DNA of 64,000 bases from Candidatus Latescibacterota bacterium. GTDB taxonomy: Bacteria > Latescibacterota > UBA2968. The notes under the pieces are model-generated. The model was not told where the DNA came from. It searched no databases and saw nothing but the letters and a program-made list of their open reading frames with translations. The stretch spans positions 3,808,001 to 3,872,000 of the forward strand of contig OZ220741.1 of assembly GCA_965116885.1 (NCBI GenBank). Reading direction: 5' to 3'. This document shows positions 42,998-46,006 of the stretch, in pieces. A program made the position numbers and the translations under genes. Each line of letters begins with the position of its first letter. The stretch's first letter is position 1.

Positions 42998-43735
42998 GTG
43001 TTAACCCTTAAAAGAAACATTAATGTATTGATTGACTATGACAACGTATCACATATTGACCCCCAGAAAGGATTGAATCACGTAGTTAAGTCGATTTTGG
43101 AAAAGCTCCCTAAAGGCATGTTACCTCACGGCACATATATTGCAGTTCGTCTTTATGGTGGCTGGTATAGATCAAGTCAATTGTCGCGACGTGCCCAAGA
43201 CCTAAGCATCCAAATCAGTCGTCACTACCCGGGTACTCTCTCTTTAGATACCGCCAATATGCGCCGTGTGTTCGTCTTCGTGGAGTTGGCTCGGAGCCTT
43301 TTAGTTGATCCTTCACAGGATATTTTAAACACATATAGAGTGAGGGGTGTACCTAGCAACCTGCGCCCTAAGGCATTTCCGTTCCAAGCTTGTACTCAAA
43401 CTCAAAACGCTCTGTGTCCACTCGCTGGTGCTCACACACTCCTTCAAACCGGCACATGCCCTAATTCCTCATGTGGGGTAAAAATCGCTGATGTAATTAC
43501 TCGACATGAACAGAAGCTAGTTGACACGATGCTTACGGCCGATTTGATTCACGTTGCATCTTCGAGCGCATCGGACATTGTCGTGGTTTCCAATGATGAT
43601 GACCTTTGGCCGGGAATTCGTACAGCTATATCTCTAGGAGCTTTTGTTCATCACATTCATCCTCAAAAGGGGCGTAGCACACCTACTTACTACTCCTCAA
43701 CAGTAAAAAAAAATTATTCTCAATATTCTTTTTAA
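42998..43735 (+). CDS. NYN/LabA-DUF88 (PIN-like) nuclease
   Basis: VLIDYDN, RLYGGW, EQKLVDTML..D, VVSNDDD acidic motifs; four-Cys insert. Confidence 0.82.
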   Translation: MLTLKRNINVLIDYDNVSHIDPQKGLNHVVKSILEKLPKGMLPHGTYIAVRLYGGWYRSSQLSRRAQDLSIQISRHYPGTLSLDTANMRRVFVFVELARSLLVDPSQDILNTYRVRGVPSNLRPKAFPFQACTQTQNALCPLAGAHTLLQTGTCPNSSCGVKIADVITRHEQKLVDTMLTADLIHVASSSASDIVVVSNDDDLWPGIRTAISLGAFVHHIHPQKGRSTPTYYSSTVKKNYSQYSF

Positions 43736-43747
43736 GGCGGCGATTTT

Positions 43748-46006
43748 ATGAATATAGATGATCTAAAAAAAATTCTGATTGCCTTCGCTGATAGTGAAGC
43801 AGATTTAGAGATGGTTGGTAATGTGTTGGTATTTCAGATTAGAGACGAGATCATAGAAGTGTCTGTCGAACAACATAAAGGTAATCTGTTTATTACCGAA
43901 AACGGAGAAAGAAACAGTGCGTATTCCTGGTTGATAAACCGTGTAGCGAGAATTCCACAACTCGCGGATAGATTACTAGATAATGTTCCTTTCGAGCCAC
44001 ATTTTATATCACCTTCTGGAATGCTACTAGATCAAATTGATGCCAATCCAGAGGACATAGAAAAGAAAGTTGAGGATGTTGCTAACCAAATACCAGATCT
44101 TTTATCTCCCCAAACAGTAGGAACGTCGACGGTTCTCTATTTAACCTCCGATGCGGGTGAGGGGAAGACCACACTCATCAATCGGATAGCGCGAAATCAA
44201 GCACAACTTTACAAGGACCAGAAGACGGACTGGTTACTGATTCCAATCAGCCTTGGCGGACGTTCCTTCTTGACATTCGATGATATTGTAGTTGCAGAGC
44301 TCGTAAACAGGTTACGCTTCCAGTTTTTTTATTATAACGCATTCTTGGAACTAGTGAAACTGGGGGTACTGGTTCCCGCTTTCGATGGCTTTGAAGAGAT
44401 GTTCGTTGAAGGATCATCAGGAGAGGCGTTATCAGCATTGGGGAACCTGATGAATTCTCTCGATTCATCCGGAACAGCTCTAATTGCCGCAAGAAAGGCA
44501 TACTTTGAGTATAGGAACTTCGCTACCCAAGCTAGACTGTTTGATGCTATTCGAGATAGATCAGTTTCTTTTGCTAATATTAAGCTCAATAGGTGGGATC
44601 GAAAACGTTTTCTTAGTTATGCGGAGAGAAGAAACCTTTCAGATAGAGAAACGATATACCATAAAGTTCGTACACGATTAAAACCTGATCATCCTTTGTT
44701 GACCCGAGCGGTCTTGGTAAAACGGCTAGTGGAGGAGGCACAAGATGGAAATGTTGATACTCTACTTGACCGTCTCGGGACTACTCCTGAAGACTACTTC
44801 TTTCAGTTTGTTAATACGCTTGTCGAACGAGAATCTCGCGAAAAGTGGATAGATCGTTCTGGTACACCCCATCAATCTCTGCTGACAACTGAAGAACACC
44901 ATGCGCTACTAGCACTAGTGGCAAAGGAGATGTGGATATCCTCAAGCGAAGTACTCAAAGGAGACTATTTAGATCTGATTGGAGAGTTATTCGCTAGTGA
45001 GATCGGAAAACCAACAGTGATTTTACGTCAAATTGTCAATCGTATCAGGCAGCACTCATTAATTGTTTCTGAGAATGAGGAGTCGTATGCATTTGACCAT
45101 GAAGATTTTCGTAAATTTTATCTCGGGGAGGCATTAGGTACTACGTTGCTAGCAAATGATGATAGGGACATAATTGGGTTTCTGGAAAAGGGGTCTTTGC
45201 CACAGCAAACCTGTGATGCGGCACTATATATGGTAAAGAGGAATGCTGGCGATCTTGGTAAAGTCCTTCGGATTCTCCAGTCGTTGGTCAATTCAAGTGC
45301 TCCCCCATCTTACGTTGTGGAGAATGCGGCATCCATGGTTATAAGATTGCTTGAGTTGCTTACCGGTGATAAGGAAGTTGTCATTAAAGAATTTACGTTT
45401 GCTAGTGATGCCCTTAAGGACCGGAGATTTGGTGAAGTTACATTTGAAGGCTGTCTCTTTCAAGAGACATCTCTCGAGAACACGCATATCAGTAGATGTC
45501 AATTTAGACGGTGTACGATATATCAGTTAGAAATTCCGAGTGACTTTCGGACGGAAGGCACAATAATCGAAGATACTGAGATTTTAGGTATAACTCGTCC
45601 TGGCGAATTGCGTGGCATATATGATCCCGAAAGGATTTGCGAAGAGCTTACTTCGGTAGGATTTGAAGTAAAGAGTATTGAGAACCACGTGACGGTACAA
45701 CAACCAGTATCTGAGGCAGATGAAGATACCCTTCTTGCGGAGCGCGCGCTCAGGGCGTTTATGAGGGCAACGCAAATCAATGAGGGCGTATTCCGACAGA
45801 AGTTTGGTAGAGATGCTAACCGATTCATGGAAATAATTTTGCCGAAGATGATCGGCAAAGAAATTCTTCAGGAGGTTCCATACAGGGGGGGCGGGGCGCA
45901 ACGACGCTTTGGAATATGTGTTCCTATGAGTAATATTGAAGCAGCGGTACCGACGACTTTGGGGTCATTAGATGAGTTTTTGTCATCGGTAAAGCATGGA
46001 GCATAA
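43748..46006 (+). CDS. NACHT/STAND-like P-loop NTPase with C-terminal pentapeptide-like repeats
   Basis: LTSDAGEGKTT Walker A, PAFDGFEE Walker B, AARK sensor, FDHEDFRKFY winged-helix motif, FGEVTFEGCLFQETSLENTHISRCQFRRC. Confidence 0.8.
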   Translation: MNIDDLKKILIAFADSEADLEMVGNVLVFQIRDEIIEVSVEQHKGNLFITENGERNSAYSWLINRVARIPQLADRLLDNVPFEPHFISPSGMLLDQIDANPEDIEKKVEDVANQIPDLLSPQTVGTSTVLYLTSDAGEGKTTLINRIARNQAQLYKDQKTDWLLIPISLGGRSFLTFDDIVVAELVNRLRFQFFYYNAFLELVKLGVLVPAFDGFEEMFVEGSSGEALSALGNLMNSLDSSGTALIAARKAYFEYRNFATQARLFDAIRDRSVSFANIKLNRWDRKRFLSYAERRNLSDRETIYHKVRTRLKPDHPLLTRAVLVKRLVEEAQDGNVDTLLDRLGTTPEDYFFQFVNTLVERESREKWIDRSGTPHQSLLTTEEHHALLALVAKEMWISSSEVLKGDYLDLIGELFASEIGKPTVILRQIVNRIRQHSLIVSENEESYAFDHEDFRKFYLGEALGTTLLANDDRDIIGFLEKGSLPQQTCDAALYMVKRNAGDLGKVLRILQSLVNSSAPPSYVVENAASMVIRLLELLTGDKEVVIKEFTFASDALKDRRFGEVTFEGCLFQETSLENTHISRCQFRRCTIYQLEIPSDFRTEGTIIEDTEILGITRPGELRGIYDPERICEELTSVGFEVKSIENHVTVQQPVSEADEDTLLAERALRAFMRATQINEGVFRQKFGRDANRFMEIILPKMIGKEILQEVPYRGGGAQRRFGICVPMSNIEAAVPTTLGSLDEFLSSVKHGA

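Follow-up and report, generated by a model that had tools for sequence, protein, structure and literature searches.

What do two adjoining genes, one encoding a predicted RNase and the other a large P-loop NTPase, do for the bacteria that carry them? The question is raised by a locus of a Candidatus Latescibacterota bacterium, found in a 64,000-nucleotide stretch of DNA, the whole of which is called the window here. The preliminary description of this DNA proposed that the pair is a candidate antiphage system. Conservation of the cassette and surroundings enriched in defense genes support that proposal; the assignment of the NTPase to the STAND/NACHT class is weakly supported, and the suggestion that its repeats mimic DNA is not supported. 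The pair is probably immune in function, a candidate bacterial immune system without a name, because its genes travel jointly across phyla and lie among known antivirus genes.

The first gene (42,998–43,735, plus strand, as are all parts of the two genes given below) begins with GTG and encodes a 245-residue LabA/DUF88-type, PIN-like NYN nuclease, the proposed effector. Its TAA stop codon (43,733–43,735) is followed by a spacer of 12 nucleotides, GGCGGCGATTTT, the distance originally reported and now borne out by the ORF coordinates, and then by the ATG of the second gene (43,748–46,006), which encodes a 752-residue NTPase, the proposed sensor and switch. Repeat ends were said to bracket the pair at 42,843 and 46,085, and we place them at 42,844 and 46,085. 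Specifically, the right end of an unstranded repeat element copy, E2 (42,690–42,844), forms the 5′ limit of the cassette, and a solo left end of the same family (46,085–46,146, likewise unstranded) forms the downstream, 3′ limit. E2 terminates in inverted repeats, CTGGAGTTACCCCGC and GCGGGGTAACTCCAG, that are perfect over 15 nucleotides. A 22-mer of this repeat family occurs seven times at no more than 3 mismatches, against 0 copies expected, and all seven lie within 40.1–48.1 kb, including those at 42,822–42,843 (minus strand) and 46,085–46,106 (plus strand).

Homology to two related loci, L001 and L002, begins 20–22 bp past the right end of E2 and spans a conserved leader (42,864–42,997, plus strand; 91–92% identity to both) that contains a GGAG ribosome-binding site 5 nucleotides ahead of the GTG start. 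The leader also contains a reading frame that is probably the remnant of an IS3-like transposase orfA; its counterpart in L002 (ORF 5037–5210) reads ‘...VHPVSLSKWKCQFLDSGAE...’. A conserved 3′ tail (46,007–46,076, plus strand) follows the NTPase gene, and homology to L001 and L002 stops at 46,076. Scanning for promoters and terminators yielded 12 promoter-like sites, where shuffled sequence gives 6.8 on expectation; none made a convincing promoter for the cassette, and no convincing plus-strand terminator emerged. We considered and rejected an integron reading of the repeats. The boxes of an attC site have the R″ and R′ consensus RYYYAAC and GTTRRRY, which the repeat ends, TGGAGTTACCCCG... and ...CGGGGTAACTCCA, misfit by eye, and the island harbors no integron integrase. 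Among the island ORFs scanned, none matches a tyrosine recombinase; integrase-like sequence is limited to a C-terminal fragment of a serine recombinase and one ParB-HTH ORF.

Conservation across genomes establishes that the two genes form a unit. By tblastn, 77 of 80 loci encoding the NTPase also encode an NYN homolog, and these loci span at least 15 phyla. In 74 of the 80, the NYN gene immediately precedes the NTPase gene on the same strand; two others have it in divergent orientation (L005, L014), and in one (L031) an insertion has displaced it. As for the three loci that lack it, one (L029) ends without upstream DNA, and two (L025, L074) possess a degraded NTPase. The gap between the genes measures −10 to +13 nucleotides in 47 of 51 intact pairs, and the pairwise identities of the two proteins track one another (Pearson r 0.94, Spearman rho 0.75; 1,326 locus pairs). 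Two pairs in a single genome, L011 and L012, have likewise diverged in parallel (55% and 52% identity). When 760 flanking ORFs are clustered, only the NYN and NTPase families recur (75 and 62 loci), and the next cluster reaches 9 loci. Thus, the neighborhood conservation anticipated for a two-gene cassette holds, with no recurrent third gene: the NYN and the NTPase constitute a conserved, self-contained cassette. The catalytic residues of both proteins are retained in 51–52 of 52 intact pairs.

The suspicion that this is not an already named system also finds support. At E ≤ 0.01, PADLOC v2.0.0 contains no family that matches either protein, and no name for an NYN–NTPase pair appears in the literature searched; one STAND survey (PMC13581612) defines 589 clades, among which this family may figure. 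The sole NCBIfam match, to HalA, is confined to the repeats and scores 26.6 bits against a cut-off of 250.

From the NYN side, the intact acidic motifs and four-cysteine insert noticed at the outset are real, because they are conserved across homologs and pairs. Pfam NYN (PF01936) matches residues 157–216 only (E 2e-5, 25.6 bits versus a gathering score of 24.2), and several homologs either match PF01936 or bear a LabA/DUF88 name from their source. In 27 aligned homologs, no variation occurs at D13, N16, D176, D182, D200, D202, C132, C140, and C154, and almost none at C159. Among the 52 intact pairs, D176, D182, and D200 are present in every one, and D13 and D202 in 51 each. The cysteine insert (43,391–43,474), presumed to be a zinc-binding knuckle, retains C132, C140, and C154 in all 52 pairs; C159 is present in 46 of them. 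Solved structures offer no match to the NYN family profile at E ≤ 1. One 799-residue protein (P0387), the only long NYN match, was rejected as a fusion because its first 560 residues lack Pfam matches and resemble an over-called ORF.

The NTPase is built of several parts. Its N-terminal domain (residues 1–115; 43,748–44,092) is acidic, with a mean net charge of −7.8, and is conserved, with F13, D15, D19, E51, W61, R65, A67, L72, and A73 invariant. Residues 1–115 match no known family, enzymatic families included, and an ESM Atlas search with residues 1–118 returned uninformative scores of at most 0.84. Of the best 150 of the relatives found, none exceeds 786 residues; neither result points to an effector domain fused to the NTPase. 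The atypical Walker A and the DGFEE motif of the preliminary description are both present. Specifically, the Walker A SDAGEGKT (residues 134–141; 44,147–44,170) conforms to the P-loop pattern GxxxxGK[ST], but with Ser in place of the first Gly, and G137, G139, K140, and T141 occur in 52 of 52 pairs. The Walker B VPAFDGFEE (residues 209–217; 44,372–44,398) includes conserved DGFEE at residues 213–217, with D213, G214, E216, and E217 in all 52. R249 is similarly kept in 52 of 52 pairs, and H315-P316-L318-T319-R320 is invariant in the family alignment. The C-terminal domain (residues 626–752; 45,623–46,003) is conserved across the family and matches no family or PDB entry.

Does the NTPase belong to the STAND/NACHT class, as first proposed? 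In the NACHT clade, the Walker B takes the form hhhhDGhDE and includes two acidic residues; a sensor-1 Arg and then an xPLLh motif come after it, and the NTPase exhibits this signature. Pfam NACHT is present on 20–43% of the members of the closest ESM Atlas clusters and on 84–92% of those of further clusters. The curated models speak against the assignment. Pfam NACHT (E 0.054, 13.8 bits, cut-off 26.7) and nSTAND_NTPase5 (E 0.014, 15.6 bits, cut-off 34) both fall below threshold, as do AAA_16 and KAP, and all these matches cover only some 40 residues around the P-loop. At E ≤ 0.01, nSTAND_NTPase5 matches 6 of 26 family members and NACHT matches 0 of 26. No curated NACHT, NB-ARC, or nSTAND model gave a significant match, and a PDB search with the NTPase family profile returned only pentapeptide proteins and no solved STAND chain. 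Together, the motifs, with their order, and the ESM Atlas neighbors hint weakly that the NTPase is a STAND/NACHT member.

A further part of the NTPase is a pentapeptide-repeat segment (residues 545–625; 45,380–45,622) of about 12 tandem units of the A(D/N)LXX type, the proposed sensor surface. Three observations uphold the initial reading of these C-terminal repeats. Pfam Pentapeptide_4 matches the window protein at E 3.4e-5, under its gathering score, and reaches E ≤ 0.01 in all 26 family members; the NTPase family profile aligns residues 545–620 with the structures of MfpA (E 6.8e-7), a McbG-like protein, and Qnr; and hydrophobic residues recur every five positions over the roughly 12 units, or about 3 coils. 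Among close homologs, this segment is the most variable part of the protein (49% of sites, versus 21% in the core). Its dN is 0.135–0.157, compared with 0.022–0.044 in the core, and its dN/dS, estimated from three sequences over 81 codons, is 0.70–1.95 versus 0.19–0.43. Rapid evolution is what one would expect of a sensor, and the pentapeptide β-helix is therefore the likely sensor of the NTPase, in line with the role originally assigned to it. The companion idea, a DNA mimic, found no support: the segment comprises only about 3 coils, and its net charge averages only −4.2 (range −10 to +2).

The same repeats invite a reading with roles reversed or otherwise rearranged, in which the pentapeptide β-helix is the effector, for example one that inhibits topoisomerase or gyrase as Qnr and MfpA do, and the NYN with its Cys4 insert is a nucleic-acid sensor or accessory. 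The profile matches to MfpA, McbG-like, and Qnr structures point this way, and nucleic-acid binding by the Cys4 insert is conceivable. We regard this reading as highly improbable. The NYN catalytic aspartates are all kept, as in an active enzyme, fast variation would be unusual for an effector with a conserved target, and about 3 coils is a short helix.

How did the cassette reach so many lineages? Judged by identity-based nearest neighbors and distance correlation, the nearest relative belongs to another phylum for 24 of 52 pairs, with cross-phylum identity as high as 84%. Relative to L001, synonymous divergence is 0.09–0.13 in the cassette and 0.41 in the neighboring glnS. The cassette has spread horizontally. 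In the window it occupies a low-GC island between two tRNA genes, which are all that the Rfam and tandem-repeat scans of the island returned. No homolog emerged from the plasmid or phage collections searched: tblastn gave no match to either protein in 72,556 plasmid records and none to the NTPase in 50,697 phage records, and PHROGs matched neither protein.

This distribution bears on two explanations that involve no phage sensing. The first is that the pair performs accessory RNA processing or regulation, as suggested for other LabA/NYN proteins. Some bacterial NYN genes adjoin genes for tRNA or rRNA maturation, and clock feedback involves LabA (described in PMC5499597); furthermore, ordinary metabolic genes surround many of the related loci. 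A patchy presence over at least 15 phyla, close relatives across phylum boundaries, changing surroundings, strong defense neighbors that include restriction–modification (R-M) operons, and placement of the window cassette in a low-GC island all make a nonimmune function very unlikely. The second explanation is toxin–antitoxin-like addiction, in which the NTPase restrains an NYN toxin and the pair stabilizes islands or mobile DNA without sensing any phage component. The tight coupling and co-inheritance of the two genes fit addiction, as do the transposases, relaxase, and zeta and PIN toxins that adjoin the pair in some loci, and the location of the window cassette between repeat elements with a transposase remnant. 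PIN-like toxins linked to R-M operons have, moreover, been described (PMC5499597). A 752-residue NTPase of several domains, its ATP site invariant and its repeat surface fast-evolving, is, by contrast, unlike a labile antitoxin, and the order of the genes, toxin first and large partner second, together with embedding in R-M operons, suits sensor–effector defense at least equally. We deem addiction unlikely.

The genes surrounding the pair argue for defense. At E ≤ 1e-30, PADLOC matches 25 of 104 immediate neighbors. Of the 40 control ORFs, which lie in the window but off the island, it matches 1 (Fisher odds ratio 12.3, p 0.0015); this control comes from one genome only. At the looser cut-off of E ≤ 1e-8, the counts are 31 of 104 and 7 of 40, and the enrichment is not significant (p 0.15). 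The latter result, the plasmid and phage searches, and the many metabolic neighborhoods weigh against a defense module. In the window, the gene that follows the pair specifies a GmrSD/HEC-06-like type IV restriction enzyme (PADLOC, E 1.8e-60). In six related loci (L046, L048, L057, L070, L072, and L078), the pair is embedded in a type I restriction operon, with hsdS on one side and hsdR on the other, in some cases beside Abi_2, DarT/Macro, TIR, or Fic genes.

Such positions raise the possibility of a PrrC-like guard: the pair would monitor, or act as a decoy for, the adjoining restriction enzyme, and a phage anti-restriction protein would trigger the RNase. In favor of this, MfpA, Qnr, and similar pentapeptide proteins resemble DNA. 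A type I R-M subunit is an immediate neighbor in 9 of 80 loci, the six hsdS–hsdR cases add to the argument, and there is a precedent in PrrC, which is reported to be kept silent by the type I R-M enzyme to which it is linked and to be switched on by a phage anti-restriction factor (PMC2610378, PMC3458546). In most loci, however, including the window, no type I R-M gene is adjacent. Because unrelated defense genes (DarTG, TIR, Abi_2, and Fic) share the space between hsdS and hsdR, that space may be a mere insertion hotspot. Given also a pentapeptide segment that is short and only mildly acidic, we consider a restriction guard improbable.

Our favored reading, to which we assign a probability of roughly one-half, is that the pair is a mobile two-gene antiphage (or anti–mobile-element) module, consisting of an NLR-like NTPase switch and a separate NYN RNase. 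The 752-residue protein would be an NLR-like nucleotide switch assembled from an N-terminal adaptor-like domain, a NACHT-style P-loop NTPase, a helical region, the pentapeptide β-helix, and the C-terminal domain. At rest, the NTPase would keep the system off. During infection, the fast-evolving pentapeptide and linker region would recognize a phage-derived cue, and the NTPase would respond with an ATP-dependent change or oligomerization that recruits or releases the separately encoded nuclease. The NYN, a predicted metal-dependent PIN-like enzyme with a Cys4 insert, would then cleave RNA and stop the infection, probably at a cost to the cell. We infer, on this model, that the NTPase adopts a STAND fold and that the two proteins touch. 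RNA is presumably the NYN substrate, the NTPase presumably the sensor and the NYN the executor, and the outcome presumably abortive.

We speculate about one bolder version, which we hold to be improbable. The notion is that the pentapeptide β-helix is a nucleic-acid-like decoy mounted on the NLR-type switch: phage proteins that grip DNA or counter restriction would bind the decoy, the NTPase would flip, and the NYN RNase would be licensed, making the pair a portable guard that backs up restriction systems. Candidate binders may include anti-restriction factors, nuclease inhibitors, and replication and packaging proteins. A decoy of this type would explain the repeated insertion of the pair between hsdS and hsdR, and the pair would represent the first case of an NLR-like receptor that relies on molecular mimicry for sensing and on an RNase furnished in trans.

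The favored module matters for several reasons. The NTPase family is large, with 607 cluster representatives (50% identity) at E ≤ 1e-30, and its spread over at least 15 phyla falls mostly in soil and sediment lineages that E. coli-centered defense catalogs under-sample. If the pair protects against phages, it adds an NLR-like system with a separate NYN RNase effector and an unusually small sensor; the small sensor would make trigger mapping and engineering easier than with the large Avs proteins. Repeated insertion into type I restriction operons additionally makes it possible to ask directly whether genes so placed serve as a backup for restriction. Bench work is possible because cultured carriers exist, namely Pseudomonas sp. 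TNT2022 ID642, Dyadobacter koreensis DSM 19938, Mucilaginibacter sp. SMC90, and Larkinella arboricola DSM 21851.

How does the pair compare with systems already known? One close likeness is to bacterial NACHT/NLR-related (bNACHT) proteins and antiviral STANDs (Avs), which similarly possess a central P-loop NTPase with a NACHT-style Walker A (AGxGKT) and Walker B (DGhxE), a C-terminal repeat sensor, an association with defense islands, and a history of horizontal spread. Pentapeptide repeats are, indeed, listed among bacterial NACHT sensor types (bioRxiv 10.1101/2022.07.19.500537). Unlike those proteins, the present NTPase has no fused N-terminal enzymatic effector, and its nuclease is specified by a separate upstream gene. 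The pair also has no PADLOC Avs or bNACHT match, its Pfam NACHT score is sub-threshold, and it is a candidate system. Moreover, its sensor comprises about 80 residues, whereas the sensors analyzed in the 2026 STAND survey, as that source describes them, are at least 400 residues long (PMC13581612).

Nuclease–NTPase pairs such as HEC-03, Gabija, PARIS, Hachiman, and Menshen share the arrangement of a nuclease gene adjoining an NTPase gene. HEC-03 couples an ABC ATPase to a PIN protein (bioRxiv 10.1101/2024.01.29.577857), and complex formation is reported as universal among 16 nuclease–NTPase systems (bioRxiv 10.1101/2025.07.10.664194). Those pairs use ABC/OLD-type ATPases or helicases, whereas the present NTPase combines NACHT-like motifs with a pentapeptide β-helix; PADLOC returned no HMM match to any of the five for either protein, and NYN is absent from the nucleases treated in bioRxiv 10.1101/2025.07.10.664194, where the term appears 0 times. 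PrrC/EcoprrI resembles the six hsdS–hsdR loci in uniting an RNase and an NTPase within a type I R-M operon. PrrC, however, is described as carrying its ABC-ATPase domain and its anticodon nuclease on one polypeptide, whereas the window pair consists of two genes with no type I R-M neighbor. Linkage to type I R-M is thus not obligate: it occurs in 9 of 80 loci only, and the window island contains no hsd genes.

HEC-09 and MARF1/LabA-type proteins share the NYN fold family (PF01936) and its conserved aspartates. HEC-09 was found inside a defense system; it is nonetheless a one-gene candidate whose N-terminal part is HTH-like, and it gave no defense in the panel tested, as reported in that source (bioRxiv 10.1101/2024.01.29.577857), a result that counts to some degree against a defense module here. 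The present NYN is set apart by its Cys4 insert, its obligate NTPase partner, and its lack of a PADLOC HEC-09 match. Finally, MfpA, Qnr, McbG-like proteins, and the HalA crown domain resemble residues 545–620 in repeat periodicity and profile similarity. In those proteins the β-helix stands alone, with about 8 coils, or forms part of an ion channel, whereas here about 3 mildly acidic coils are set inside a large NTPase.

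The NYN gene and the adjacent P-loop NTPase gene constitute a real, widespread, and mobile two-gene module. On the forward strand of the window, a 245-aa NYN ORF with a GTG start (42998-43735) is followed, across a 12-nt spacer, by a 752-aa NTPase ORF (43748-46006), which bears out the two-gene arrangement noticed in the preliminary description. The 245-aa protein matches Pfam NYN at 25.6 bits (gathering score 24.2), over residues 157-216 only. All Pfam family matches of the 752-aa protein are sub-threshold: Pentapeptide_4 aligns at residues 551-613, and nSTAND_NTPase5, NACHT, KAP, and AAA_22 align at the P-loop only (E 0.014-0.12). 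Neither protein matches a PADLOC v2.0.0 model at E≤0.01, and neither has a match in PHROGs.

The pairing suggested by the window is conserved in other genomes. The NTPase family comprises at least 1278 proteins at E≤1e-3 in a word-indexed search. Of the 50%-identity cluster representatives, 607 match the NTPase at E≤1e-30; the number rises to 1016 at E≤1e-10 and to 3274 at E≤1e-3, where repeat-only matches are counted as well. The best 150 relatives span 422-786 aa, and thus none carries an NYN fusion. A scan with one genome per species yielded 96 NTPase relatives, and 80 loci were retained. Searching these with the NYN protein (tblastn) reveals an NYN homolog in 77 of the 80. In 74 of the 77, NYN lies directly upstream on the same strand; it is divergent in two (L005, L014) and separated by a 1.6-kb insertion in one (L031). 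Concerning the three loci without NYN, the L029 contig begins within the NTPase gene, and the NTPase genes of L025 and L074 are degraded. When the 760 ORFs of all loci are clustered, the recurrent families are the NTPase (75 loci) and NYN (62 loci); the next cluster reaches 9, and no third component recurs.

Our intact-pair set combines the window with 51 loci in which both genes are intact, adjacent, and co-oriented, giving 52. In 47 of the 51 loci, the two genes are separated by -10 to +13 nt. NYN residues D13, N16, D176, D182, D200, and D202 are conserved in 51-52 of the 52 pairs, as are C132, C140, and C154 in all 52 and C159 in 46. NTPase residues K140, T141, D213, G214, E216, E217, and R249 are conserved in 52/52. 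Between-locus identities of the two proteins correlate (Pearson 0.94, Spearman 0.75; 1326 locus pairs), which shows co-inheritance, not contact, as common ancestry alone could yield such values. One Vicinamibacterales genome carries two pairs on contig OZ241843.1 (L011, L012), whose NTPases are 55% and NYN proteins 52% identical; these pairs diverged in parallel, a pattern suggestive of different specificities.

What class of NTPase is this? Judged by NACHT-type motif definitions, the motif order is Walker A (xxAGxGKT), Walker B (hhhhDGhEE), an invariant R249, and an invariant HPLLTR at 315-320. At E≤0.01, nSTAND_NTPase5 matches 6 of 26 family members and AAA_16 matches 5 of 26. In the ESM Atlas, the closest clusters comprise equally long proteins annotated as pentapeptide repeat-containing, 20-43% of which carry Pfam NACHT; the next clusters have NACHT on 84-92% of members, or the NACHT-associated NA-iREase2 domain. 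The ESM Atlas search itself gives such neighbors the status of leads. The earlier STAND/NACHT assignment draws weak support from motif order and these leads. Curated family models all fall below threshold on the NTPase, and a sequence search with the family profile reaches no STAND protein of solved structure. We file the NTPase as NLR-type-switch-like in its presumed working rather than as an established STAND member.

The module is mobile. Assigned to phyla by hand, the 80 loci represent at least 15 of them, with Acidobacteriota the commonest (27). Cultured carriers include Pseudomonas sp. TNT2022 ID642 (L050) and Dyadobacter koreensis DSM 19938 (L043). For 24 of the 52 intact pairs, the closest relative resides in another phylum; cross-phylum closest pairs include Binatota/Desulfobacterota (84% identity) and Bacteroidota/Planctomycetota (74%). 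Between the window and a related Latescibacterota locus, L001, dS is 0.13 for the NTPase and 0.09 for NYN versus 0.41 for the adjacent glnS, indicating that the cassette moved or recombined after the genomes split. In the same comparison, dN is 0.054 for the cassette versus 0.025 for glnS, indicating faster protein evolution in the cassette. Searches of PLSDB plasmids and GenBank phages revealed no copy.

DNA homology defines the limits of the cassette. Homology of the window with L001 and with a second Latescibacterota locus, L002, runs from 42864/42866 to 46076 (92.4% and 90.9% identity); thus, the cassette is a discrete unit. The stretch exactly fills the space between an element end at 42844 and a solo end at 46085, and the pair is bracketed by repeat ends as described earlier. 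The cassette leader (42864-42997) is presumably a remnant of a transposase-orfA-like HTH frame. The frame is longer and better preserved in L002 (5037-5210), and in the window it is truncated by the repeat element at 42844. The element family is absent from L002, and the cassette limits are independent of the repeats.

The 22-nt repeat motif TGGAGTTACCCCGTTTTGGTGG occurs seven times in the 64-kb window (≤3 mismatches; 0 expected by chance) and a 12-nt core nine times. Every copy falls within 40.1-48.1 kb, and none lies elsewhere in the window. These motifs form the inverted ends of small elements belonging to one family, with a consensus of about 118 nt and whole copies of 108-255 nt. Whole elements occupy 41700-41954, 42690-42844, and 47949-48100; there are solo ends at 40149, 40264, and 46085, and repeat-bearing stretches at 40087-40264 and 46085-46146. 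Some copies are nested or contain insertions. Hairpin folding beats shuffles in three of four copies tested (z -3.8 to -4.8). In L001, the same family sits between different genes (1567-1788, 3683-3790, 4840-4957, 8680-8702, 10391-10497, 12156-12249) in a syntenic island beside tRNA-Gln. Integron attC sites were considered and rejected, as the ends do not fit attC boxes. Neither a target-site duplication nor a transposase was identified for the elements, which we call MITE-like.

The surrounding island, in which elements separate nearly all genes and all ORFs are co-oriented, spans 39353-48422, between tRNA-Pro (39276-39352) and tRNA-Gln (48423-48496). This 9-kb stretch has 35-46% G+C versus 52-55% in the flanks. 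Directly downstream of the pair, a separate unit between repeat ends encodes a GmrSD-type type IV restriction enzyme (46161-47945; Pfam GmrSD_N and GmrSD_C; PADLOC Orf5 1.8e-60, HEC-06 8.9e-56). Abutting tRNA-Gln is a fragment that matches the C-terminal part of an integrase family (48100-48420; PHROGs phrog_95, E 2e-5), read as a likely serine-recombinase remnant, and near the other end lies a ParB-HTH/"recombinase" ORF (39402-39911). Its appearance suggests a decayed integrated element that now serves as a defense island. Three further ORFs of 133, 167, and 238 aa (40676-41077, 41150-41653, 41958-42674) match nothing in Pfam, NCBIfam, PADLOC, or PHROGs and may be additional unrecognized defense genes. 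Repeat ends flank the 238-aa ORF on both sides, and the other two share one bounded unit.

Neighbors elsewhere point toward immunity. We scanned 104 immediate neighbors of at least 150 aa, what remained of 142 after removal of 36 shorter ones and two of L080; the control was 40 ORFs outside the island in the same window, and thus one genome only. PADLOC matches number 31 among neighbors and 7 among control ORFs at E≤1e-8, a contrast that is not significant (p 0.15), and 25 versus 1 at E≤1e-30 (odds ratio 12.3, p 0.0015). The control matches at E≤1e-8 come mostly from housekeeping-type proteins that align only in part. Partial matches in the core genome of the window fall in ORFs 5592-7349, 11198-14248, 22635-23279, 52158-52691, and 63447-63929, the families being PbeA, LmuB/PbeC, mad2, PDC-S70 (8.7e-42), and mad3. 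These ORFs probably encode housekeeping relatives such as SMC/SbcC-like proteins, and they reveal the background of false positives at loose PADLOC cut-offs.

Gene order around the pair is more telling than neighbor counts. Specifically, the pair is embedded in type I restriction-modification operons, with all genes on one strand in each locus: hsdM – Abi_2 – hsdS – NYN – NTPase – hsdR (L046); hsdM – hsdS – NYN – NTPase – TIR – DarT – Macro – hsdR (L048, 569-13268); hsdS – NYN – NTPase – hsdR (L057); hsdM – PDDEXK – hsdS – NYN – NTPase – PDC-S05 – PDDEXK – hsdR (L070); hsdM – Fic – unassigned ORF – hsdS – NYN – NTPase – PDC-S05 fragment – unassigned ORF – hsdR (L072); and hsdS – NYN – NTPase ... 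hsdR fragment (L078). Type I genes also adjoin the pair in L061, L069, and L018. In L048, L046, L070, and L072, these operons appear as insertion hotspots, housing the pair together with TIR, DarT-Macro, Abi_2, Fic, PDDEXK, or PDC-S05 genes. New systems have been found via genes embedded in defense operons (bioRxiv 10.1101/2024.01.29.577857). The remaining neighbors are mixed (transposases, a relaxase, zeta and PIN toxins, a methylase, a Schlafen-like gene), many others are plain metabolic genes, and the pair also occurs as a lone insertion. Taken together, the circumstantial case for a role in immunity is good.

Mechanistically, the NLR-like NTPase would most likely control the trans-encoded NYN RNase, with the pentapeptide region as the likely variable sensor. 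Across the family, NTPase conservation is highest in residues 121-270 and lowest in 481-660. Among seven close homologs (81-100% identity), variable sites make up 49% of the pentapeptide segment, 39% of the N-terminal domain, 38% of the linker (471-544), 21% of the P-loop core, and 22% of the first helical region. Pairwise dN/dS is 0.70-1.95 in the pentapeptide segment versus 0.19-0.43 in the core, noisy values from three Latescibacterota genes and 81 codons. A recognition surface would be expected to vary in this way, which does not by itself show the target recognized. The segment proposed earlier as the sensor is indeed the most variable. With about 12 repeat units and a net charge averaging -4.2, it lends no positive support to the accompanying idea of DNA mimicry. 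The pair would represent a new principle only if its beta-helix acts as a nucleic acid decoy bound by phage proteins, or if it guards the neighboring restriction enzyme.

How does the pair compare with known systems? That it belongs to no named system, as initially supposed, agrees with the PADLOC result and with the literature searched, in which we found no description of an NYN gene paired with an NTPase or NACHT gene. As far as the available portions of these sources extend, HEC-09, a single NYN gene, gave no defense (bioRxiv 10.1101/2024.01.29.577857); a bacterial NACHT survey lists pentapeptide repeats among sensor types and leaves NYN unmentioned (bioRxiv 10.1101/2022.07.19.500537); the pair does not feature in two eLife surveys of NTP-dependent conflict systems; a comparison of 16 nuclease-NTPase systems lacks NYN (bioRxiv 10.1101/2025.07.10.664194); and a PIN-superfamily classification records PIN toxins in type I restriction-modification operons but mentions no NTPase partner of NYN (PMC5499597). 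A 2026 survey of 589 STAND clades (PMC13581612) contains neither NYN nor pentapeptide in its text and six supplements; the family may be listed in its main clade tables. The sole NCBIfam match of the two proteins is repeat-level, to the Hailong protein HalA, and far under its cut-off. The cytoplasmic crown of HalA is reported in a review to bind short oligo-dA (PMC13434031), and the likeness of the window NTPase to HalA is limited to the level of the repeats.
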